From a virus (taxonomy: Duplodnaviria; Heunggongvirae; Uroviricota; Caudoviricetes), in the IMG/VR virus record IMGVR_UViG_2703718859_000017: a stretch of DNA of 32,854 nucleotides; one strand, 5' to 3'. The notes beneath the pieces were generated by a model. It was given only the letters and a program-made list of their open reading frames with translations. It was not told the DNA's origin and did not search any database. The position numbers and the translations under genes are program-made. Below are positions 12,332 through 31,858 of the stretch, one piece after another. Every line of letters begins with the position of its first letter. Position 1 is the stretch's first letter.

Positions 12332-12666
12332 TTCACCCCGTTGTGCTCAAGGCTGAAATGATTGCCGTCTGCCCGGCTGAAGCGTCCGCCCCATGTGCCG
12401 CCGATGGATTCCCAGTATTCCCCCAGCGGCCTGTAGGCGTCGGTATCGGCCTGGTATTCGCCGTTAATGAACAGGTTGAAGTCCACCGCGAGGCGCAGCG
12501 TGTGAAGGCTGTTGCGAATGCCTTTTCCGCTTTTCGCATTCAGTGCGGCCTGCTCCGGCGTGCGGTATGCCTCGCCGAAGGTCAGGCGATAGCCGTGCTC
12601 CTGTGCCCAGTGGATGAGATCGGCAATCATGACGGCAAACAGTTGTTGTTTTTCGCTCAGTTTCAT
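12328..12666 (-). CDS. Endolysin, peptidase M15-type zinc peptidase (L-Ala-D-Glu / D-Ala-D-Ala peptidase family)
   Basis: 112 aa with SLHTLRLAVD and DGNHFSLEH motifs that resemble the remembered H-x6-D...H zinc site of M15 peptidases. Sits between holin/MTase and spanins. Confidence 0.55.
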   Translation of the reverse strand: MKLSEKQQLFAVMIADLIHWAQEHGYRLTFGEAYRTPEQAALNAKSGKGIRNSLHTLRLAVDFNLFINGEYQADTDAYRPLGEYWESIGGTWGGRFSRADGNHFSLEHNGVK

Positions 12667-13418
12667 CAGTCACTCCTCTGTTCCGTCCCCGTAAGACGCG
12701 CCTGTGCCACGCTGAAATAGTGGGCGTTCAGTTCAATACCCGTAAAACGGCAGCCCCGGCGAAGGGCGGCCACGCCCGTGGTGCCGGACCCCATAAACGG
12801 ATCGAGGATCAGCCCTCCGGGTTCACACACGCGCACAAGCTCATCCATCAACGATTCCGGTTTACCTGTCGGGTGCTGTTTCTCCTGTGGGCGTGTGTGG
12901 TGCGTGATGCAGCCGTCGAACGGCCCGGAAGGGGATTTGCCCAGCGCGCCTTTACTGCCCCAGACCACATATTCGCACTGGTGACGAAAATAACCGGTAT
13001 GCGGTGTTCTTGAGGCCCGTCCCTTGTTCCATGCCACGATCCCCCGCCAGGTAAAGCCGGCGGCCTGGAATGCGTCCGTCAGCGCGGGCAACTGCCGCCA
13101 GTCGGTGAAGACCAGGGCGTAACCACCGGGTCGTACCGTGCGCCATGCCTGTGTCATCCACAGATGCGTCCAGTATTCCCATGAACGGGCGTCCATGTTC
13201 TCGCCTTCGAAGCCTTCAAAGCGGTGAAGATCTTCATCGTTGATGTATTTGGCGTGGCTGCCCTGGCATGTCCGCCCCGCCTTGTGTGTGGCACCTGAAC
13301 TGTATGGCGGGTCTGTGATGAGCGCGTCCACACTGTTTTCCGGCAGCATCCGCAGAACGTCATGCGCCTGCGCGTGATACAGGCTCAGGGAAGGCGAAAT
13401 GTAAGGCTTATGGGTCAT
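12666..13418 (-). CDS. DNA methyltransferase (N6-adenine or N4-cytosine, beta-class); orphan, no adjacent restriction enzyme
   Basis: 250 aa with ITDPPYSSG (catalytic DPPY motif) near the N-terminus and LDPFMGSGTTG (AdoMet-binding FxGxG) near the C-terminus. Overlaps the holin stop and endolysin start. Confidence 0.8.
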   Translation of the reverse strand: MTHKPYISPSLSLYHAQAHDVLRMLPENSVDALITDPPYSSGATHKAGRTCQGSHAKYINDEDLHRFEGFEGENMDARSWEYWTHLWMTQAWRTVRPGGYALVFTDWRQLPALTDAFQAAGFTWRGIVAWNKGRASRTPHTGYFRHQCEYVVWGSKGALGKSPSGPFDGCITHHTRPQEKQHPTGKPESLMDELVRVCEPGGLILDPFMGSGTTGVAALRRGCRFTGIELNAHYFSVAQARLTGTEQRSD

Positions 13419-13713
13419 TTCTGCGTTCCTTCTGCTTCAGGTAGCGGTCTGCCAGACGGCAAAAGCATTCTTCAATAAAGGCGCTGCCCATAATGCCCAG
13501 CGCGCACGCCAGACCGACCACAACCAGCTCCGGCATGTCAGGAAATTTAAACAGCGGAATGGCGGCAACCGGTGCCACGGCAGAGCCCATAATCATTCGC
13601 CCGATAAGCAGACGGGCTGTGATGCGATCGCGGCTCACCATGAGACGCCCCAGCCCGATGGCAGCACCGATGATAATCAGTTTTGCCAGGAGTGAAGTCT
13701 GACCGTCCGGCAT
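13408..13713 (-). CDS. Holin-like membrane protein (three predicted TM segments, charged C-terminus)
   Basis: 101 aa ORF with hydrophobic segments LLAKLIIIGAAIGLG, GSAVAPVAAIPLF, LVVVGLACALGIMGSAFI and a C-terminal KQKERRND tail. First gene of the lysis cluster. Confidence 0.45.
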   Translation of the reverse strand: MPDGQTSLLAKLIIIGAAIGLGRLMVSRDRITARLLIGRMIMGSAVAPVAAIPLFKFPDMPELVVVGLACALGIMGSAFIEECFCRLADRYLKQKERRNDP

Positions 13714-24307: not shown

Positions 24308-24712
24308 TTACCTGCGTGATTGTCTGCCAGCGGCTGAATGCACATAGCGGGCAATTGCCGCTTTGCGGTTAATCGTGACCAGTGTTCTGGTGAGTTCTGC
24401 GTTGTGTTTGTGTGCCTGCTCTTCGTGGTACTGCCGCATGATTTTTCCGGCAGGCGTGAGCGGCTCCGGCTCTCCGGGCGGACGGCGCGGACGAACGGCG
24501 ACAAGCCAGCTGCGGTTGGTGCTGTCCGGTCGTCCGTTGAGTATGTCGGTGATGATGGCCGTGGTGGTGCGATCGGGACTGACGACCGTGATTTCCAGCT
24601 CATCGCCCGGTTGTGGTCCCATGGCAATGTTGTTCAGGGTCAGTAAGGGCGTGCGCTGGCGCATCATTTCGTCAAAGCGCTGGCGCTGCATGGCGCAATA
24701 AAAGCGGGTCAT
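24308..24712 (-). CDS. Hypothetical protein (134 aa) translationally coupled to the 3' end of gene A
   Basis: ORF track. Start overlaps the A stop. Occupies the position of P2 orf91. Confidence 0.4.
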   Translation of the reverse strand: MTRFYCAMQRQRFDEMMRQRTPLLTLNNIAMGPQPGDELEITVVSPDRTTTAIITDILNGRPDSTNRSWLVAVRPRRPPGEPEPLTPAGKIMRQYHEEQAHKHNAELTRTLVTINRKAAIARYVHSAAGRQSRR

Positions 24713-27228
24713 TGTGGCGCCTCCGTATTCGGTGCGGGAGTGATATCAATGCGGCGGGTGCTGTCATTCCAGTACGCGGTGCGCCCGTCAGCCAGGCGCA
24801 CGCGGGCACCGTGACGGACGGAAACGACGGCGCTTTCATGCAGCTGCACGCCCAGCGCATCAAGCTCACGGGTGATTTGTGCGGTGATGTGTGGCTCAGC
24901 GGTCAGTGCGACACTCACGCGAACGCCGCCAGCGGGCGCACTGATGCCGCCGTTTTTCACGGTTTCCGTGTCAGGTGGCGGGTTTTTCAGCTGCCTGGTG
25001 AGTTGTTTTCGCTCTGTGGGGGTCAGTGACCTTAACCATTCACCCAAATCACCTTCCGGCAGGGTAAGTCGCTGCTCCCTGCGTCCGTCCGGCTGCCTTT
25101 CTGGCGGGTCGTTTATGGTCAGATTCTGGTCAGGGGGACAGTTATTGCCACGAGTCCAAGGTGCGGCAAAGCCGCACTCAACGTCAAAACCCTCGTCCGT
25201 GCGGTCTTCGTTTTCCGGCTTGCGTCTGACCAGTTTCCAGGTGTCCGGGTGGGTGCATATGGTGTAGCGCTCCCCGAGTGACGGGGCGCGGACGCCGTAA
25301 ATGCGTTGCGGGAATTCGCCGTAGTCGTTGGCCTCTTCGGCAGTTTCGTATGCGGTGCGGACCAGGTACGTGTTGCGGGGAATGAGCACACCACCCTGGC
25401 GGGTGATATAGGTGGCAAAACATCCCACGTCGGCGGCGGCCAGTATGGCGTCAATGTCGTCATGGTCCAGACGCTGCGGGGCAGTCGGGTTACGGGCCAT
25501 CTGCCCGGCAAGGCGGCGGAGTTCGCGCCATACCTGGCGGGGCGGGATACCGAAGAACTGGAACTGGCGGATGCGGTGAAGGGCCGCCCAGCCGATGGCG
25601 TTCTCCACGGTTTCGGCCATGGTTTTGCCTGATTCCTTATCGACGTAAGGTTTGCCGGTTTTCGGGTCATTCCCCATGAAGGCGCTGGCGTCCAGGTTCT
25701 TACCGATATAGGTCGCGATATAGCTTGCCGGTGTGCCTTTTGCCGGGTCGATTTTTTCGCATTTAAAACGCGGGGAGATATCATCACCCAGCTCTGCGCG
25801 GTCCTCCCTGATGGCGGCGTTGCGCATGATTTCAGTGATACGGGCTTCGTTTTCCGGGCTGGTGAATACCAGCATGTGCCAGTGCGGTGTACCGTCGTGG
25901 TGGGGCTCTACTGTGCGCACGCCGTACCAGCCCAGCCCGGCCTTGTTGATGGCCTTGCGGACGGCGGCGAAAAAGCGGTAAACCAGATAATCACTGGCAT
26001 CACGTACCGTTGCCCCGCAGTATTTCGGGTTCAGACTGCCGTCATCGTTCACGCTGTGAAAACGGGAAGGGGCTGTGACGGTGACGAAAAACGCCACGTC
26101 GCCGCGTGCTTCGGCGACCTGCTCCATCCCCCGGACGCAGGCCATCATCTCGTTACGGCGGTTACGCGGATTAGAGAGACCTGCCCAGTAGATATCCTCA
26201 AGGCTGAACCGTTCTCCTTCTTCGTTCTCGATGTCCCAGGCCTTCAGAAAATCGCGGGTGCGCTGGCGTTTTTCGCGCCAGTCCAGTAACGCTTCATGGC
26301 TGATATATATCGATGTCTTACGTGACACCAGACCTGCGGCGCGTAACAGCTCTTCACGCCAGATGTCCCGGAGGTGTCTTAACTGACTGTTCCACCATGT
26401 CGCACAGGAAAGGCGCATGACCGCACCCGGCACCTGTTCCGGGTCGGGGGCGGTGCGGCGGTCGGGCCTGATTTCCAGCGACGGCCAGCAGGGTGGCGTG
26501 ATACCCAGTTTTAACGCCATGTGTGCCAGTGGCTGGTAGGTCAGTAACCAGGTGAACAGGTCATCGTCACCCCTGCCGGTCTTTTCGATGACCTCATCAC
26601 ATGCGCGCTCCAGTGCGGTGGAAAACGCGGTGGCGGTCAGGGTGGCAAGGCGCTGGATTTCGTCACGGCTCAGCTGCGGCAGCATAAGCAGTTCATCCAG
26701 CCGTTCGCGTGCGGCGGTGGCCTTAAAGGCCGGGGTGGCAAAGCGTTCATTCACACGGGCGATACGTTTCAGGCGGGCACGCAGCCCGTGACGAACGAAG
26801 TTATCCGCCGCGTATGCGCTGTTGTTCTTAAGCCCTTCCCGGCGTGCGCTCTCCTGTTTGCGGCTCAGGCGTGCCAGGTCACGGATGAGCGGACCGGCAA
26901 GAAACGGCGGAAGGGCGCGCAGCTCTGCCATGGCTTCAGATACCAGTGTTGGCGGATTCTCGTGTTTGTGCCGCGCCAGTTTTTCCAGCCTGATCCGACG
27001 CTCTTCGTCGTGGTGAAGATGCGAATTAATTCGCTTGCCTTCGTCTGTGTTTGTCAGGAAGTCGACGGTCTCTTCATCCAGTCTTGCATCAATGCGAATG
27101 TCTTCGTTGATGTAGCTCTGAATGGCCTGGCGTAATGCGGTTGGTTGCGCTCTGCCGAACGTTTCAGGATCGATAACCGGTAGCGGGGCGTTCCACGGGT
27201 ACGCCAGCTGTGCATTGTGGTCACTCAT
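24709..27228 (-). CDS. A: Rolling-circle replication initiator (P2 gpA-like HUH endonuclease)
   Basis: ORF track 24709..27237 begins GTG; ATG at 27228 overlaps the upstream ORF stop (ATGA). Contains TPHWHMLVF (HUH motif) and YIATYIGK (active-site tyrosines). About 840 aa. Confidence 0.85.
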   Translation of the reverse strand: MSDHNAQLAYPWNAPLPVIDPETFGRAQPTALRQAIQSYINEDIRIDARLDEETVDFLTNTDEGKRINSHLHHDEERRIRLEKLARHKHENPPTLVSEAMAELRALPPFLAGPLIRDLARLSRKQESARREGLKNNSAYAADNFVRHGLRARLKRIARVNERFATPAFKATAARERLDELLMLPQLSRDEIQRLATLTATAFSTALERACDEVIEKTGRGDDDLFTWLLTYQPLAHMALKLGITPPCWPSLEIRPDRRTAPDPEQVPGAVMRLSCATWWNSQLRHLRDIWREELLRAAGLVSRKTSIYISHEALLDWREKRQRTRDFLKAWDIENEEGERFSLEDIYWAGLSNPRNRRNEMMACVRGMEQVAEARGDVAFFVTVTAPSRFHSVNDDGSLNPKYCGATVRDASDYLVYRFFAAVRKAINKAGLGWYGVRTVEPHHDGTPHWHMLVFTSPENEARITEIMRNAAIREDRAELGDDISPRFKCEKIDPAKGTPASYIATYIGKNLDASAFMGNDPKTGKPYVDKESGKTMAETVENAIGWAALHRIRQFQFFGIPPRQVWRELRRLAGQMARNPTAPQRLDHDDIDAILAAADVGCFATYITRQGGVLIPRNTYLVRTAYETAEEANDYGEFPQRIYGVRAPSLGERYTICTHPDTWKLVRRKPENEDRTDEGFDVECGFAAPWTRGNNCPPDQNLTINDPPERQPDGRREQRLTLPEGDLGEWLRSLTPTERKQLTRQLKNPPPDTETVKNGGISAPAGGVRVSVALTAEPHITAQITRELDALGVQLHESAVVSVRHGARVRLADGRTAYWNDSTRRIDITPAPNTEAPQ

Positions 27229-27641
27229 GCGTCGCACTCCCCGGCAGTCGCCGCCTGAAACGCCGCGCGGTACAGCACGAGAAGGCGCTGGTATTCACCG
27301 ATAAAGTCTTCTGCGGTGTATATGCCTTTCACGGCCACGCTGTGCGTTGTCATTTCCAGCACAAGCGCCATCTCTGACGACGACCAGTTGATGGCGGTGC
27401 TGTCGGTTCCGTTGATGTGAAATAAACCAAAACCATCACCATCACCTTTCACGTCCACGCGGTAACGGTCGTCAACGGTGAAGGAGAAATCCCCGTATGT
27501 GGTGACGCGTCTGGTGGCCTGTTTACAGGCGCGGCGGTAATAGTCGTGCCAGTCGTTCAGGCGGGAAGCCAGCCGGGGATCCACTGCCCACATCCAGTTA
27601 AAAAAGTCCTGAATATCTGAAAGTCCCTTAACGCTCTTCAT
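27225..27641 (-). CDS. Hypothetical protein (138 aa) coupled to the start of A
   Basis: ORF track. Stop overlaps the A start codon. No recognisable motif. Confidence 0.45.
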   Translation of the reverse strand: MKSVKGLSDIQDFFNWMWAVDPRLASRLNDWHDYYRRACKQATRRVTTYGDFSFTVDDRYRVDVKGDGDGFGLFHINGTDSTAINWSSSEMALVLEMTTHSVAVKGIYTAEDFIGEYQRLLVLYRAAFQAATAGECDA

Positions 27642-27709
27642 GAGAACCTCCGGTAACAGACGTGCGGAAGCCTCCCGCGCACGGGTGCGGGATGGCTTCA
27701 GGATGTTGT

Positions 27710-27937
27710 TTAGTGGTGGTGTTGCTGGTTGATAAGGTCCTGCAGTTCTGCCAGGTCATCCGCCAGGTAGCTGAAGACGGCGGCGTAATACCCGGCAGCG
27801 ATACCATCGTTAAGTCGGTGTAATGCGTTTGACTGCATGATGAAGGTGACAGATGCAGCCCGATGGAGTCTGCGGTTGATTTCAGTGCGGATGTGAAGAC
27901 GCTCAGCGCGGGCGCGCTGTTGTTTGCGGTTTGCCAT
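27710..27937 (-). CDS. Small basic hypothetical protein (75 aa)
   Basis: ORF track. ATG 27937 with AAGAGG SD. The SD overlaps the 3' arm of a 9-bp perfect stem in the upstream structured element. Confidence 0.45.
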   Translation of the reverse strand: MANRKQQRARAERLHIRTEINRRLHRAASVTFIMQSNALHRLNDGIAAGYYAAVFSYLADDLAELQDLINQQHHH

Positions 27938-28257
27938 GGTGTTTGGCCTCTTGTAGTAAGTTCTGAAAACTCACCAACCCGAGGTTCCAAGCTCAGGGTG
28001 GCGAGACGTACAGGGTTGGAACTACCGGCTACAAGAGATCCCGGCCCGACCGAAGTCGGCCCCGTACGCCCCGCCATAATTCTGACGCGAAAAAGACGTG
28101 GCGATACAGTACGCACAAAAAAACCGCTGGCGCGGTTGTGCGCTCTTGTAGTCGGCGGGGTTCCAATCCCGGCACCCGTTTTATGAGGTGCGGGAAAACT
28201 GTAACCCGACCAGGCGAACGCTGGCAAGCGGTTTTTTTGTGTGTGCATGATGATCAC
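27938..28257. other. Structured GC-rich intergenic element with nested inverted and direct repeats (CTCTTGTAG at 27948-27956 and 28143-28151, reverse complement at 28029-28037; GGTTCCAA at 27983-27990 and 28159-28166, reverse complement at 28016-28022); candidate cis-regulatory RNA or ncRNA
   Basis: Read directly from the sequence. The only track ORF here (27628..28257, 209 aa) is low-complexity and judged spurious. Confidence 0.4.
28117..28137 (-). terminator. Intrinsic terminator on the minus strand inside the structured element (stem AACCGC/GCGGTT, loop GCCA, then U-run)
   Basis: Minus strand reads aaccgcgccagcggtt followed by ttttt, about 120 nt downstream of the ORF183 stop. Confidence 0.45.
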
Positions 28258-28809
28258 TCAGTCCGGTAACAGTTCAGAGAGCACGGCGTCAGCCGCGGTG
28301 CGGCGGTGGTAGAGATGCCGTACTGTGCTAATGGTGAGTTTCATCTGCTGCGTACTGTTGATGTGCTCTGCTATCATGACGAATGTCATGTGCTGTTCAT
28401 CACGTAGTTCTGTCACCAGTTCCACCAGGCGATCGCTGTGTCTGGCGTTGGGGTGTAGCTCCCCGCATTTTTGTAGACTAAAACCGCGCTTATTCAGGTG
28501 TGCTTTTACTGTGCGATCGGTACATCCCAGCCCGTTCGCCAGTTCCTTCGCTGTTCTGGTGTGGCGGTTTTTGATGAGAATGGTGATTTCTTTTCTGCTC
28601 AGCACCTTTCTCTTGCGGCCAATCAATCCACGATTACGTAAAACATGAATTCTGTTCATAACTGCGCTACTGGTTCGTTGAATTCGTTCAGCCATCTGAT
28701 GTGTGTTGTGTTCCTGATAAAGCGAGATGAGTAACTGATCTTCCTGCTGTGTCCACGCCTTCACATGTGCCGGGGCTTTGCCCGGTATTCCCATTGGTGT
28801 AAGTCTCAT
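28258..28809 (-). CDS. Putative DNA-binding protein with three helix-turn-helix-like repeats (183 aa)
   Basis: ORF track. Three similar segments containing ...RTVKAHL..., ...SAVMNRIHVL..., ...STVRHLY... typical of HTH recognition helices. Function unknown. Confidence 0.4.
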   Translation of the reverse strand: MRLTPMGIPGKAPAHVKAWTQQEDQLLISLYQEHNTHQMAERIQRTSSAVMNRIHVLRNRGLIGRKRKVLSRKEITILIKNRHTRTAKELANGLGCTDRTVKAHLNKRGFSLQKCGELHPNARHSDRLVELVTELRDEQHMTFVMIAEHINSTQQMKLTISTVRHLYHRRTAADAVLSELLPD

Positions 28810-28835: not shown

Positions 28836-29087
28836 TTATTCGGTCGGGTTCAGGGTATAATCAATGGCGTTTTCAATACGGCGTTTAAGGTCCCGGTGGA
28901 TCTCACCTGGTGTTACTGGTGCGCCAGGACCGCTCAGCGTTGCCGTGAAGTCGTCGATTTCCTCCAGTAACAGATTGCGGAGTGCGGCGATGTGGTGGCG
29001 TGCGTCTTTACCGGGTTTACGTGCGTTGGTGGTGTACTTGCTGATCATGGCCGCAGCTCTCCGTGGGCTTGTGTTTCTGATTTCCAT
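28836..29087 (-). CDS. Hypothetical early-region protein (83 aa)
   Basis: ORF track; co-oriented with the early operon. Confidence 0.35.
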   Translation of the reverse strand: MEIRNTSPRRAAAMISKYTTNARKPGKDARHHIAALRNLLLEEIDDFTATLSGPGAPVTPGEIHRDLKRRIENAIDYTLNPTE

Positions 29088-29296
29088 GCCCCTCTGATGG
29101 CCGTTACTTCGCGAACGGTACTGGCAATCGCGGTGATTTGTGTGCCGTCAGCCAGATGGATGTAGAGATAATCAGCATCTGACGGGCACGGCGTGGTCGT
29201 TGTGATTAAATAACTTTCCACCATGAACTCGCGGCCCGCGGCATCGGTGAAATGCGTCAGCAGGGTTCGTCTTGTGGCGGTAAATATGCTGTTCAT
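29045..29296 (-). CDS. Hypothetical early-region protein (about 83 aa from internal ATG)
   Basis: ORF track 29045..29311; the Met at 29296 avoids overlap with the upstream ORF. Confidence 0.3.
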   Translation of the reverse strand: MNSIFTATRRTLLTHFTDAAGREFMVESYLITTTTPCPSDADYLYIHLADGTQITAIASTVREVTAIRGAWKSETQAHGELRP

Positions 29297-29307
29297 CGTT
29301 CTGCCCC

Positions 29308-29586
29308 TCACGCTGAAAACTGGCCGGACTGTGCCCGGAGTTCTGCCAGTTCGCGCTCGAGGCGCAGGTTTTTCATATAGAGTTCACTGATGGTCTGTTT
29401 TGCTGTCACCATTGCCATGCTTTGCATTTGCAGGGCCATGTAAGTAGCAAAATGCTTGTCTTTATCTATTTCTGATATTCTTTCATCCAGTACATTGGTT
29501 ATTTCAGTCAGCGTTTTTTGCGTCAATTCAATATGCGCCGGGTCGGTAAATAGTTTGTTTATTTCTGTAGGTGTATTGGTGCTCAT
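29308..29586 (-). CDS. Hypothetical early-region protein (92 aa), AT-rich
   Basis: ORF track. Coiled-coil-like C-terminus (LRLERELAELRAQ). Confidence 0.35.
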   Translation of the reverse strand: MSTNTPTEINKLFTDPAHIELTQKTLTEITNVLDERISEIDKDKHFATYMALQMQSMAMVTAKQTISELYMKNLRLERELAELRAQSGQFSA

Positions 29587-29665
29587 AGCTGTTTCTCCGT
29601 TTTTGGATTGAGTGAAGCCCTCCGCAGATGCGGATGGTTTTAATGTTTTCTGTCCGGTTGGTTAT

Positions 29666-29791
29666 TTATTTACGGCGTTCTTCGCCAGTAAATAAAGATT
29701 CGATATTTTTCAGCGCTTCGATAATTCGCATAATGCCAATCGCCATAAGCACGGAAATAATCAGAATCACCCATGAAAGAAATACGCTCAT
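29666..29791 (-). CDS. Small membrane peptide (41 aa), translationally coupled to upstream ORF
   Basis: Manual translation MSVFLSWVILIISVLMAIGIMRIIEALKNIESLFTGEERRK. ATG overlaps the stop of ORF 29788..30030 (ATGA). Coordinates anchored to the plus-strand track ORF 29628..29867. Confidence 0.35.
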   Translation of the reverse strand: MSVFLSWVILIISVLMAIGIMRIIEALKNIESLFTGEERRK

Positions 29792-30030
29792 GCTGCATTC
29801 CCAAGTGCGTATGGCTCAATATGTACTCCGCATTCTGCATCACGAACAAGCTCAGACAGCTCATTGAGAGCATCCAGATCGTCAGCGTAAAAAGCTGCGT
29901 CATACAGGCTGCGAATTGCTCTGGTCAGTGAGTCTCTTGCTGCATGTTCTGCGGCAACTCCTGACATACTCAGGCGAAAGTTAAAGCGCTCAAGGGCTTT
30001 ATTGATGAGAACCTTATATTCTTTGTCCAT
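29788..30030 (-). CDS. Hypothetical early-region protein (80 aa)
   Basis: ORF track. Confidence 0.35.
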   Translation of the reverse strand: MDKEYKVLINKALERFNFRLSMSGVAAEHAARDSLTRAIRSLYDAAFYADDLDALNELSELVRDAECGVHIEPYALGNAA

Positions 30031-30050
30031 TGTATTTCCCCGGAAAACAA

Positions 30051-30305
30051 TTAAACAAAATCGCTTAATGATTTACCTGATTCAATCTTCTCTATCGTGT
30101 CTTCAATAGCCATGTATGCGGCGTAATCGCCTGCGAGGTCGGCGCATTTCTGTAGCCCCTGTAATGCGCTGATGATATCTTCTTTTGCTTCCCATAAAGG
30201 TTTTGCTGTATTTAGTGCATTACGGGCATTATTAGCTATGAGCCGGTGTATGATAATTGTGTAGGCTGATGCTATCTCTGCCATGTCTTTTGTCGTTGTT
30301 GCCAT
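30051..30305 (-). CDS. Hypothetical early-region protein (84 aa)
   Basis: ORF track. Confidence 0.35.
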   Translation of the reverse strand: MATTTKDMAEIASAYTIIIHRLIANNARNALNTAKPLWEAKEDIISALQGLQKCADLAGDYAAYMAIEDTIEKIESGKSLSDFV

Positions 30306-30308
30306 GTA

Positions 30309-30644
30309 TTAATTCCCCCATGGATGCTGAAAACTGCGACCGCTGATTAACCGGTCTGCCGTTCTTAATGCTTCGTGCAGGGTGAAATCCTGCCCGAACT
30401 GCTCATCTCCGCGAGTCAGGGAGTAACAGGTATTTCCGGTAATCGGGTTGCGTGCGCCTCTGTGTATGACAATTCCGGCATCATTAATCAGCCAGGTGTG
30501 TTTACCGGTTTGTTTAACCAGATGCCCGTCAGGTGTGGCGTGCGTTTCCTGCAGGCTGTAGTGCGAGTTGCTGCGTGATGCGCTGGTTGAGAAACGGTTA
30601 GCGTGGCGTTCTGTGCCGCTGCGGAAGTTGCGTCGCTGTGTCAT
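30309..30644 (-). CDS. Hypothetical early-region protein (111 aa)
   Basis: ORF track; in the position of 186/P2 early accessory genes. Confidence 0.35.
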   Translation of the reverse strand: MTQRRNFRSGTERHANRFSTSASRSNSHYSLQETHATPDGHLVKQTGKHTWLINDAGIVIHRGARNPITGNTCYSLTRGDEQFGQDFTLHEALRTADRLISGRSFQHPWGN

Positions 30645-30696
30645 ATCGGAAAAACCCGCTTAAGTTAAAAGAATTGAAATAACGGTGTATTGGCAT

Positions 30697-30927
30697 TTAT
30701 GCCCAGTTGTCTTTTCTTATTACTGTTTCATTCTGAAATCCTGTCTGCTCCATTGCATTTTTTAAGGACTCTTCTGTTTCAAATGTCACAACGATGCAAT
30801 GGGTCGGGTAATGGAAATACAAATCGTTGCCAGCCCGAACAATGGCATCTAAGTTCTGATTACAGATTATTACTGAAGCGTCGTCGCTTATTTTTATTCT
30901 TTGTCTGATTTCCGTGTGTTTAATCAT
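30697..30927 (-). CDS. Hypothetical early-region protein (76 aa), AT-rich
   Basis: ORF track; first gene downstream of cox. Confidence 0.35.
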   Translation of the reverse strand: MIKHTEIRQRIKISDDASVIICNQNLDAIVRAGNDLYFHYPTHCIVVTFETEESLKNAMEQTGFQNETVIRKDNWA

Positions 30928-30957: not shown

Positions 30958-31383
30958 TCACGCAGCTTTTTTACTGATGCGTTTATTCCGTGAACCAGCT
31001 GCTGGCTTAAATAAAAAAAGTCGGTTTTCCCATTCGTGCCATTCTTGCGGTGCGTTTTCAGTGAGTCGATCGCAGGCTTCATCCCACGCTTTCCGGTTGA
31101 TGTAGAGTTCGGCGTTTCCGCCAGGCTTGAGAGGGTCCGCCATGTACACAGCGGGTAATTTCCCTGCTTTTGCCATGCTCACGATGGCGTCAACGGTCTT
31201 GCCGATATACATCGCAAACCCTTCTTTTGACAGGAGATGAGAAGGGTTTTGTGAAAGCCGGATTTCCTGGCGTTCAGGGGCTTTGCGGCCGGTCTTCAGG
31301 TGTTCTGCTTCCGATATCTCTGACTGGTGATCGCATCGTGTGCCACAAAGTGACTCCGGCGCGTTTTGAGTGCTTTCTTGCAT
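30958..31383 (-). CDS. cox: Cox-like excisionase/early repressor (C-terminal 84 aa is Cox-like; N-terminal extension uncertain)
   Basis: ORF track 30958..31422 begins GTG. ATG at 31383 has a strong GGAGGA SD; alternative ATG at 31212 has a GAAGGG SD. The segment MYIGKTVDAIVSMAKAGKLPAV aligns with remembered P2 Cox (FAKLIGKSTGAVRRMIDKGKLPV). Confidence 0.6.
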   Translation of the reverse strand: MQESTQNAPESLCGTRCDHQSEISEAEHLKTGRKAPERQEIRLSQNPSHLLSKEGFAMYIGKTVDAIVSMAKAGKLPAVYMADPLKPGGNAELYINRKAWDEACDRLTENAPQEWHEWENRLFLFKPAAGSRNKRISKKAA

Positions 31384-31498
31384 CTGATATCCTCCGCCAT
31401 TGGTGCTTTTTCTAATTGGCACTATTTGGAACCACTTAGAACATTTTGTTTGCTGTTCATATGTGGTGTTAATCTACACATATGTAGGAGTTTGTCAA
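31384..31498. promoter_or_regulatory. Lysis-lysogeny switch region between divergent cox and C starts (expected Pe/Pc promoters and C operators)
   Basis: 115-bp AT-rich gap between the divergent cox and C start codons. Repeated CATATGT-like elements visible. By analogy to P2; promoters not mapped. Confidence 0.45.
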
Positions 31499-31792
31499 AT
31501 GGATATTCCTCAAAAAATTCGCGTCATGCGTAAATCTGAAGATCTCACTCAGCGGGAATTCGCTGATATGATTGGAATTTCTTATTCTGCTCTGACCAGT
31601 TATGAGTATGGTCGTAACCTTCCTGGCCTTGAGATCACCATCAAGCTTTTCAAGCATCCTAGATTTTCTAAATACCGTGACTGGTTTTTGTTCGATGAGG
31701 TCGAACCAAAGGCCGGGCAGGTGGTACCGGCTCTCGCACACATTGGGCAAAGCGAAGCGGAATCATCCCACTCCGGCAAGAAGACTGGTTAA
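31499..31792 (+). CDS. C: Immunity repressor C (P2 C-like)
   Basis: 97 aa from ATG 31499 with GGAG SD. Segments RVMRKSEDLTQREFADMIGISYSALTSYEYGR and VPALAHIGQSEAESSHSGKKTG match the remembered P2 C protein closely. Confidence 0.8.
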   Translation: MDIPQKIRVMRKSEDLTQREFADMIGISYSALTSYEYGRNLPGLEITIKLFKHPRFSKYRDWFLFDEVEPKAGQVVPALAHIGQSEAESSHSGKKTG

Positions 31793-31858
31793 CGGTCCAT
31801 CTGGCCTTTATTTCTCAAAATTGTGATCAAGATGATGTTTTCATTGGGGGGCTTCCTT

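Follow-up and report, generated by a model that had tools for sequence, protein, structure and literature searches.

We begin with a question raised by a stretch of viral DNA of 32,854 nucleotides (IMG/VR record IMGVR_UViG_2703718859_000017, called the window below): what are the small open reading frames (ORFs) crowded into positions 28836-30927, between the cox gene and a gene for a helix-turn-helix (HTH) protein, and is the shortest of them, a hydrophobic frame of 41 amino acids, a gene with a role of its own? The original prediction described the set as early genes of a temperate phage, of the kind that often serve host takeover, anti-defence or exclusion.

The phage and its early operon

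The window is a P88-like prophage (Xuanwuvirus, P2 family) of a type that is common in E. coli. Its best named relative is phage P88, whose gene order matches that of the window. The relatives carry annotated cox, HTH, integrase and replication endonuclease genes, and in RefSeq their cox product is labelled "Cox family DNA-binding protein". In the window, an HTH_3 repressor ORF is found at 31400-31792 and the integrase ORF begins at 31823; the region has integrase and C upstream and gpA downstream. This is the arrangement of an early lytic operon of the P2 family (Peduoviridae), in which a Cox/Apl-type gene faces the repressor and integrase and the A gene is distal. A candidate Pe promoter (Table 1) lies before cox and faces the gene of the C repressor; this putative role is assigned from the layout of the P2 switch. 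The interval 28836-30927 is the promoter-proximal portion of the Pe early (lytic) operon, and the description of its ORFs as early genes agrees with their location, as a P2-type cox and a sigma-70-like candidate Pe both lie upstream of them. The gene for the 183-aa Myb/HTH protein that ends the interval is exchanged with a wHTH/MarR gene among the relatives.

We compare this layout with the two classical members of the family. The P2 operon follows the same logic, with cox first, then small ORFs, a stem-loop, more small ORFs and the replication gene A; in P2 the genes from orf78 to B precede a terminator, and orf80-83 also belong to the early operon. The P2 families B, DUF2732, DksA-like zinc finger and DUF5405 are nevertheless absent from the window, and only cox is held in common, at 35% identity. 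In phage 186, two small, overlapping and non-essential promoter-proximal genes, fil (75 aa, annotated as a cell-division inhibitor) and dhr (66 aa, annotated as an inhibitor of host DNA replication), follow apl-cII and precede the terminator tR1. Phage 186 and the window, both of the P2 family, therefore resemble each other in having small promoter-proximal early genes with a stem-loop boundary after them. The gene products do not share this resemblance: among the window proteins, cox alone matches early genes of P2 or 186. Fil belongs to PF10893 (84 bits), which none of the ten window proteins searched matches at E<=0.1. A resemblance of the DUF4761 protein to Fil or Orf78 was also considered, and it failed under BLAST and Pfam (DUF4761 versus Fil, BLAST E=2.4).

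Table 1. Features of the region and its borders, in window coordinates
Feature	Coordinates	Strand	Description and evidence
Candidate Pe	31471..31498	minus	sigma-70-like, TTGACA-16-TAGATT; consensus scan, 10/12 matches
cox	30958..31383	minus	141 aa, first gene of the early operon; PF10743 Phage_Cox E=1.1e-27, phrog_1831
orf76	30697..30927	minus	76 aa, cargo between cox and DUF4761; strong GGAGGGG ribosome-binding site
DUF4761 protein	30309..30644	minus	111 aa, backbone; PF15958
orf84	30051..30305	minus	84 aa, minority occupant of the variable DUF4761-DUF4754 slot
DUF4754 protein	29788..30030	minus	80 aa, acidic, backbone, upstream partner of the peptide; PF15946 E=3.2e-43
Peptide gene	29666..29791	minus	41 aa, predicted single-pass membrane peptide; ATGA start overlap with the DUF4754 stop
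Hairpin	29621..29634	.	5-bp stem, 4-nt loop, TCCGC-N4-GCGGA; in the 79-nt gap past the peptide gene
orf92	29308..29586	minus	92 aa, helical cargo, variable slot after the hairpin
orf83	29045..29296	minus	backbone; listed as 88 aa from GTG at 29311; phrog_3459 E=2e-4
orf70	28836..29048	minus	backbone; listed as 83 aa from ATG at 29087; phrog_4144 E=2.6e-11
Myb/HTH protein	28258..28809	minus	183 aa, DNA-binding, end of the interval; HTH_11, Myb_DNA-bind_6, phrog_323

Backbone genes and cargo slots

The small ORFs between cox and the HTH gene are all on the minus strand and at the positions first reported. The expected eight ORFs of 76-111 aa turn out to be seven, and the total reaches eight when the 41-aa ORF is included. 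The last two, listed at 29045-29311 (88 aa) and 28836-29087 (83 aa), most likely start at internal ATG codons and give products of 83 and 70 aa (Table 1), the forms that public databases hold. The AT-rich patches that had been remarked on are present, with a GC content of 37.7% in orf76, 38.1% in the peptide gene, 42.4% in orf84 and 44.1% in orf92 against 55.9% for the window. The set is beyond what chance would give, as each product has identical public copies on tens to at least 1000 contigs. The small ORFs, the 41-aa gene included, have already been predicted and deposited in public data, and are known rather than new; the description of the latter as unannotated does not hold, as PGAP has WP_063087977.1 and WP_000021703.1 in RefSeq, where the product bears the label "hypothetical protein".

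When the related loci are compared, the region is seen to be a conserved backbone (DUF4761; DUF4754 with the peptide; the families of orf83 and orf70) that is broken by three cargo slots, one past cox, one separating DUF4761 from DUF4754 and one past the hairpin. The two DUF proteins pass their Pfam gathering thresholds by a wide margin (DUF4761, 164.1 bits with a cut-off of 27 over model positions 1-99 of 105; DUF4754, 146.3 bits with a cut-off of 27 over residues 1-80 of 80). The orf83 family is present in 82 of 88 loci, with the exact 83-aa form on 607 contigs, and the orf70 family, annotated in its 70-aa form, in 70 of 88, with a start that is ATGA-coupled to orf83. The AlphaFold model of DUF4754 is a three-helix bundle (pLDDT 88) for which the PDB gives no structural neighbour at E<=0.001. 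Some database entries for "DUF4754" have 103-116 aa and could be taken for natural fusions of DUF4754 with the peptide; we reject this reading, as they are frameshifted assembly artefacts.

The slots of the window are occupied by rare, AT-rich genes. The DNA of orf76 is found in 4 of 5426 complete E. coli genomes, three of which leave it without annotation, and the exact protein occurs on 908 public contigs; its frame is open in a copy of 92% identity, with about as many synonymous as non-synonymous changes. No family in Pfam, PHROG, NCBIfam or PADLOC matches it. For orf84, which also has no family match in Pfam or PHROG, the count is 6 of 88 loci; most relatives have an unrelated 92-aa gene in this slot and in some it is empty. 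The orf92 gene occurs in 4 of 88 loci, and relatives have in its place nothing, an unrelated 105-aa or 138-aa gene, or a D12 Dam methyltransferase. Its sole match is a weak one to the PADLOC candidate PDC-M64B (E=3.7e-4, 18.9 bits). The idea that PDC-M64 is this operon was dropped, as the relatives' cargo genes do not match PDC-M64.

P88 itself illustrates what is kept and what is exchanged. Its genes gp04-gp07 (Xuanwuvirus P88, NC_026014) encode DUF4761, a hypothetical protein, DUF4754 and a "membrane protein". Order, families, the 4-nt overlap of DUF4754 with a small hydrophobic ORF, and the position past a 141-aa Cox are common to the two phages, as is the transmembrane (TM) core of the peptide, and the DUF4754 proteins are ~82% identical. 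In contrast, the P88 peptide has 37 aa and does not have the C-terminal ERRK end of the window peptide, an unrelated 92-aa gene stands in the place of orf84, orf76 and orf92 are missing, and the downstream cargo is a different one (an Ead/Ea22-like protein and a lipoprotein).

Can a function be read from any of these families? Searches of Pfam, PHROGs, NCBIfam and PADLOC with all ten proteins place the small ORFs only in DUF4761, DUF4754 and PHROGs that have no function. The earlier statement that the ORFs have no recognisable motifs is correct only in part: two of them belong to Pfam families and four to PHROG families, none with an assigned function. Against PADLOC-DB 2.0, the only matches besides that of orf92 are weak ones of HTH/CARF type for the 183-aa protein. 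PDB sequence searches with DUF4761, DUF4754, orf76 and orf92 return no significant match, and a search of the literature on DUF4754 and DUF4761, on P88 early genes and on P2-family anti-defence found nothing. Taken together, sequence, profile and structure searches tie none of these proteins to a characterised function.

The peptide gene and its border

We now consider whether the 41-aa ORF is a gene or a frame that is open by chance. It is short, AT-rich and preceded by a weak Shine-Dalgarno sequence, as a chance frame could be. The comparative data speak against this. Of the 170 related loci fetched, 168 have the core of the peptide, and the search for stops and frameshifts in relatives that had been proposed yields one frameshift and one truncation among 168 loci. 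Alone among the six frames, that of the peptide stays open in every one of the 38 distinct sequences from relatives. The ATGA overlap noted at the outset, with 4 nt shared with the DUF4754 stop, is kept at 88 of 88 loci checked. The ratio dN/dS is ~0.39 over the 38 distinct sequences and 0.22-0.38 at dS 0.6-1.1 in the 88-locus comparison, and is thus below 1 with saturating change at synonymous sites; being far above the 0.09 of DUF4754, it points to moderate constraint. The peptide is conserved even beside a DUF4754 of 34% identity, where length and overlap are unchanged and the peptide has 61% identity and 90% positives. All variants of full length, down to 78% identity, have 41 aa, and at least 1000 public contigs carry the peptide in identical form. 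Judged from these alignments, the ORF is a genuine, conserved and translationally coupled membrane-peptide gene, and the chance reading, to which we leave a negligible probability, is effectively refuted.

The hydrophobic character that was first noticed is confirmed by a best 19-residue Kyte-Doolittle mean of 2.74, starting at residue 3; Fil and Dhr of 186, with maxima of 1.26 and 0.49, have no clear TM helix. The P88-type peptides have 37-41 aa, the core MS(V/I)FxSW..LIISV..AIGI(M/V)RII and a start that overlaps the DUF4754 stop. An exhaustive profile search with the peptide (1.84 billion representatives) finds only its own tiny, narrow family. Programmed frameshifting at the overlap was considered and dropped, as the sequence has no slippery heptamer.

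Past the peptide gene, a hairpin separates the conserved module from a cargo slot. Over 20 distinct sequences its pairing is kept in 99% of cells, two of the five pairs have compensatory changes, and the loop is variable. A scan of the plus strand reads it as an intrinsic terminator that has a T tract, whereas on the operon strand there is no U tract, which makes it different from the boundary in 186, a true sense-strand terminator. Rfam has no family for the hairpin, and within 28836-30927 no RNA family is found at E<=1 beyond chance matches of snoRNA type.

Possible roles of the peptide

The peptide is predicted to be a single-pass inner-membrane protein. Its charged residues are all C-terminal to the hydrophobic helix, and by the positive-inside rule, the sole basis of the topology given here, the TM helix would span about residues 3-21 with the N-terminus outside, followed by an amphipathic cytoplasmic helix at 22-35 and a basic C-terminal end. 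Its synthesis would proceed by termination and reinitiation at the AUGA shared with the DUF4754 stop, aided by a weak GGGA/GGGG Shine-Dalgarno within the DUF4754 codons. During lytic growth or induction, the unusually conserved TM helix may self-associate or bind a host inner-membrane protein, and the consequence would be a transient change in envelope physiology (division, membrane energetics or proteolysis). The peptide gene would then correspond in position to fil and dhr, the non-essential, host-directed genes that follow apl-cII in 186, an analogy of position only, as BLAST finds no similarity to either. A function of the peptide that is directed at the host is our inference. To the whole reading, that is, a P88-like Pe operon of backbone genes and cargo slots with a lytic-phase membrane peptide that targets the host envelope, we assign a probability of about 0.4. 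A bolder version, which we consider doubtful, would make DUF4754 and the 37-41-aa peptide a two-gene, membrane-targeted module for host takeover or counter-defence, with the TM helix docking on a specific E. coli inner-membrane protein in the first minutes of lytic growth.

Other roles have to be weighed. The peptide might be no more than the anchor of a two-subunit phage complex: its amphipathic tail would bind the acidic DUF4754 bundle and so tether DUF4754 to the inner membrane, with the activity residing in DUF4754. The two genes are always adjacent, the 4-nt overlap favours coupled synthesis, the pair is retained even where DUF4754 has 34% identity, the modeled DUF4754 appears as a small, confident helical bundle, and the tail has a hydrophobic stripe (I23, I24, L27, I30, L33, F34) that can be read from the sequence. 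If the tail were the contact, however, it should vary together with DUF4754, and this is not observed: the tail of the window is nearest to that of the L097 lineage (DUF4754 34%) and less like that of P88 (82%). An alternative C-terminus, giving 45 aa, replaces the end of the tail in eight loci, which suggests that the tail is not strictly required, and a near-invariant TM sequence would be needless for a mere anchor. We regard this role as possible and tentative at best. A peptide that depolarises or permeabilises the inner membrane, in the manner of a type I toxin or a holin/antiholin, and so aids host shut-off or the timing of lysis, is another candidate. MgrB, AcrZ, MgtS and Blr, like Hok, TisB and Ldr, have ~30-50 aa, one TM helix and a short charged tail, as the peptide does; its size, its N-terminal hydrophobic helix and its charged C-terminus recall Hok, TisB, Ldr and the class III holins, and its gene is AT-rich. 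Library and exhaustive profile searches nevertheless detect no sequence relationship to those small regulators and toxins, and no toxin or holin family is matched in Pfam, PADLOC or NCBIfam even at E<=0.1. Small regulators and type I toxins are stand-alone and sRNA-regulated, whereas this peptide is phage-encoded, embedded in an operon and translationally coupled; no antisense RNA family is found, and antisense promoter-like sites (6, with 4.3 expected) are at chance level. Of the features of a type I toxin-antitoxin system, the small hydrophobic ORF is present, and a cognate antisense sRNA and an independent locus are not found. Nor is the peptide the holin, since a PF04550 holin of the phage itself is encoded in the late region, at 13408-13713, ~16 kb away. 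Early depolarisation would also cost the phage yield, and we give a toxin-like role a slim chance.

The small genes, including that of the peptide, could instead protect the lysogen by superinfection exclusion or defence, or act as anti-defence factors. The slots of relatives hold a Dam-type methyltransferase and an SPFH lipoprotein, typical cargo for self-protection or accessory use; orf92 has its weak PDC-M64B match; and the rarity and AT-richness of the cargo genes fit a recent acquisition. The location of the genes argues otherwise: downstream of the repressor-controlled Pe and with no convincing internal promoter, they are not expected to be expressed in the lysogen, as exclusion would require. 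Of the three functions named in the original prediction, takeover, anti-defence and exclusion, the last is for this reason the least likely in a repressor-controlled lytic operon, and the peptide is probably not a lysogen exclusion factor. PADLOC matches neither the backbone genes nor the relatives' cargo, and the backbone is near-universal in the phage group, which is unlike typical arms-race cargo. As a whole, the protective reading appears unlikely; an anti-defence role for orf76, orf84 and orf92 in lytic growth may apply.

With the genes already deposited and their function not assignable from these searches, the value of the locus as a discovery is small. P88-type prophages are very common in E. 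coli, and an early membrane peptide that is conserved in them is a reasonable target for studies of small proteins and of phage-host interaction. The mapped slots also indicate the sites at which accessory or counter-defence genes may be sought in the P88-type group. Of 5426 complete E. coli genomes, 1425 have the stretch of DUF4754 plus peptide at ~73% DNA identity, and the 37-aa form of the peptide is confirmed in the three of these that were checked, O157:H7, 55989 and a urinary isolate. Should these three prophages be representative, about one in four complete E. coli genomes would have the module in a P88-type prophage, O157:H7 and 55989 among them. A scan of genome contigs with DUF4754 gives a single locus, labelled Vagococcus, which is probably contaminated or mislabelled.

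The early operon and its small genes

The 32.9-kb window represents a prophage of the P2 family. Among named phages, Escherichia phage P88 (Xuanwuvirus, Peduoviridae) is nearest to it and shares its early gene order; complete E. coli genomes with near-identical prophages include JNEC-KY202 and O22:H8 strain 154. A sigma-70-like promoter candidate upstream of cox would, by analogy, occupy the site expected for the P2 early promoter Pe. The small ORFs of the original prediction are all found at their coordinates and all are co-oriented, but those of 76-111 aa, counted there as eight, number seven, with the 41-aa ORF (MSVFLSWVILIISVLMAIGIMRIIEALKNIESLFTGEERRK; "the peptide") in addition. As described there, this ORF starts within the ATGA that ends the 80-aa DUF4754 gene. 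Two ORFs probably start at internal ATGs, giving the 83-aa and 70-aa forms of the databases, and an ATGA also couples the 70-aa gene to the gene upstream of it. A purine-rich Shine-Dalgarno-like motif lies 6-14 nt upstream of every ORF, weak only for DUF4761 and the peptide. The AT-rich patches are genuine and match orf76 (37.7% GC), the peptide gene (38.1%), orf84 (42.4%) and orf92 (44.1%), against 55.9% for the whole window; the three other than the peptide gene are exactly the rare cargo genes.

Features of the early operon and related loci in the window
Feature	Position	Strand	Remarks
HTH repressor ORF and integrase	right end of window	+	
Promoter candidate	31498-31471	-	TTGACA-16-TAGATT
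cox, 141 aa	30958-31383	-	PF10743, E=1e-27
orf76	30697-30927	-	slot 1, after cox; orf76 in 3/88 loci
DUF4761 protein, 111 aa	30309-30644	-	backbone
orf84	30051-30305	-	slot 2, between DUF4761 and DUF4754; usually an unrelated 92-aa gene, orf84 in 6/88, or empty
DUF4754 protein, 80 aa	29788-30030	-	backbone
Peptide, 41 aa	29666-29791	-	backbone
Hairpin, 5 bp	29621-29634		TCCGC-N4-GCGGA; in 79-nt gap (29587-29665) after peptide gene
orf92	29308-29586	-	slot 3, after peptide gene; empty, orf92 (4/88), unrelated 105-aa/138-aa helical proteins, or D12 Dam methyltransferase
orf83	29045-29296	-	backbone
orf70	28836-29048	-	backbone
Myb/HTH protein, 183 aa	28258-28809	-	after the small ORFs
209-aa ORF	27628-28257		covers both RNAs
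isrK-type RNA	28117-28191	-	RF01394, 69 bits; adjoins C4 RNA
C4 antisense RNA	27994-28081	-	RF01695, 83 bits
75-aa "derepression protein" family homologue	27710-27937	-	PF25738 in relatives; RNAs just upstream
Replication endonuclease A	24709-27237	-	beyond Myb/HTH gene, two small RNA genes and 138-aa ORF
Holin	13408-13713	-	PF04550; late region
N6/N4 DNA methylase	12666-13418	-	PF01555; adjoins holin gene, late region

The region is an ordinary early accessory region, already deposited, of a very common prophage type. The peptide had been thought unannotated, which is incorrect: PGAP calls it a hypothetical protein in RefSeq (WP_063087977.1, WP_000021703.1), and its P88 counterpart, gp07, is labelled "membrane protein" in the RefSeq record, with "putative membrane protein" used in the records of other phages. 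A look-up of nine further proteins (all seven small ORFs, the 183-aa HTH protein, and the 138-aa ORF that lies upstream of gene A) finds an identical public sequence for each, under the labels hypothetical, DNA-binding/HTH, DUF4761 or DUF4754. Only orf76 tends to escape PGAP: its DNA is present in 4 of 5426 genomes, and of these four complete E. coli genomes three leave it without annotation and the fourth gives it as a 107-aa protein whose N-terminus differs.

Conservation of the peptide gene

Judged from sequence comparison, the 41-aa ORF is a real gene, and it is a conserved, coupled member of the repressor-controlled early operon. The identical peptide is found on at least 1000 public contigs, and every full-length variant, down to 78% identity, has 41 aa. 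Of 5426 complete E. coli genomes, 1425 carry DNA that matches the DUF4754-plus-peptide stretch at about 73% identity; the three of these prophages that were inspected (O157:H7, 55989 and a urinary isolate) have a 37-aa form annotated, again overlapping by 4 nt. Across the window and 87 fetched loci the ATGA overlap is retained in 88 of 88, and the peptide frame is the sole one of six that is stop-free in all 38 distinct sequences. Comparisons between the 41-aa and 37-aa forms give a dN/dS of 0.22-0.38 at dS 0.6-1.1; overall dN/dS is 0.39 for the peptide versus 0.09 for DUF4754.

Of 170 fetched loci, 168 contain the core of the peptide, and the remaining two end before reaching it. Stops or frameshifts in relatives had been proposed as the finding that would speak against the gene; the exceptions among the 170 loci are a single frameshift, a single truncation and eight copies of 45 aa whose C-terminus differs, and since frame, overlap and core are conserved across the loci, the gene survives this check. 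Two loci selected via DUF4761 (L097, L098) have an upstream 80-aa protein only 34% identical to the DUF4754 of the window (still PF15946, E=1.7e-10); a 41-aa peptide comes next, again with a 4-nt overlap, at 61% identity and 90% similarity to that of the window. The 45-aa version occurs in several independent relatives (eight of loci L007-L169; proteins P0292, P0293), with the last residues exchanged for ...FSL(M/A/V)NN.TNKT..; because only these are swapped, the extreme C-terminus is replaceable and the transmembrane helix is not. The sole contig-collection match for DUF4754, locus L003 (NZ_JBQPOM010000071.1, 226 kb), is labelled Vagococcus sp. WN89Y and carries an enterobacterial P88-type early region with a DUF4754 85% identical and a 37-aa peptide; this Gram-positive label is probably contamination or mislabelling.

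Possible roles of the peptide

No function can be assigned to the region by computation. The families matched in Pfam, PHROGs, NCBIfam and PADLOC are all function-less, and the one defence-related match, of orf92 to the candidate PDC-M64B (PADLOC, E=3.7e-4), is not seen for the cargo of relatives. No sequence relatives are found in the PDB, and DUF4754, predicted confidently as a three-helix bundle (pLDDT 88), has no PDB neighbour at E<=0.001. DUF4761 and DUF4754 are confined to prophages of Escherichia, Shigella, Salmonella and Citrobacter; a literature search finds them mentioned nowhere, and the P88 paper is silent on these genes. An exhaustive search of the peptide profile against 1.84 billion representative proteins gives 14 matches from Escherichia, Salmonella or Enterobacteriaceae, all unnamed and of its own family. 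When the early genes of P2 and 186 are compared with the window, cox is the sole resemblance. The DUF4754-peptide pair is the one modestly interesting lead, as an experimental target.

Hydrophobicity of the peptide reaches a maximum of 2.74 over 19 residues, and all charged residues lie C-terminal to this stretch. It is predicted from its sequence to be a single-pass inner-membrane protein with the N-terminus outside, as it is uncharged before the helix and carries R22, K28 and an RRK end after it; a hydrophobic stripe with i, i+3/4 spacing runs along the predicted cytoplasmic tail. We infer that during lytic growth the peptide may act through helix-helix contact, either with a host membrane protein or with itself, because the transmembrane segment is almost invariant besides Ile/Val/Leu swaps, and because its gene has the promoter-proximal position, ahead of a stem-loop boundary, that is held by the host-directed fil and dhr in phage 186. 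A serious rival has the peptide as a membrane anchor for DUF4754, its coupled partner; that the peptide is conserved while DUF4754 diverges, and that the tail does not co-vary with DUF4754, argues for helix-helix contact.

A role as lysis holin is rejected, the holin of the window being the PF04550 protein. The peptide also falls outside the definition of a type I toxin, because no antisense RNA is found and the locus is not independent. Exclusion in the lysogen is unlikely, since we find no convincing internal promoter, and an anti-defence role may apply mainly to the rare cargo genes orf76, orf84 and orf92.

Cargo slots, hairpin and RNA module

The anatomy of the region is obtained by clustering the ORFs of the 88 loci, in which the backbone consists of DUF4761 (80 loci), DUF4754 (88), the peptide (88) and the orf83 (82) and orf70 (70) families. 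In slot 1, orf76 has the same position in loci L001 and L002 and a strong ribosome-binding site; its frame is open in all copies, including one at 92% identity. The occupants of slot 2 (here orf84; 2402-2680 in L087; also L170 and L171) are a clean case of genes replacing one another at one site. The D12-class (Dam-type) adenine methyltransferase of slot 3 (324-339 aa, PF02086, E=2e-51) is found in L007 (5052-6026) and L008. Farther along the same operon, relatives carry as cargo a 276-aa SPFH/band-7 lipoprotein (L006, 4202-5032; L087, 4084-4914), labelled "lipoprotein / serine protease" in P88.

The hairpin is conserved and marks the border of the conserved module with the cargo slot. Across 20 distinct sequences the pairing holds in 99% of cells, with compensatory changes in two of the five pairs and a variable loop; no Rfam family matches it. 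A scan of the plus strand reads it as an intrinsic terminator with a T tract, the operon strand being without a U tract, and so by sequence it looks like a terminator of the antisense strand, whereas P2 (after orf78-B) and 186 (after fil-dhr) have a sense-strand terminator at the equivalent place.

The C4 RNA, the isrK-type RNA and the derepression protein homologue form a P1/P4-style antisense-RNA module within a P2-family early operon. The 209-aa ORF is probably spurious; at its position in relatives, PGAP annotates an "ash family" pseudogene.
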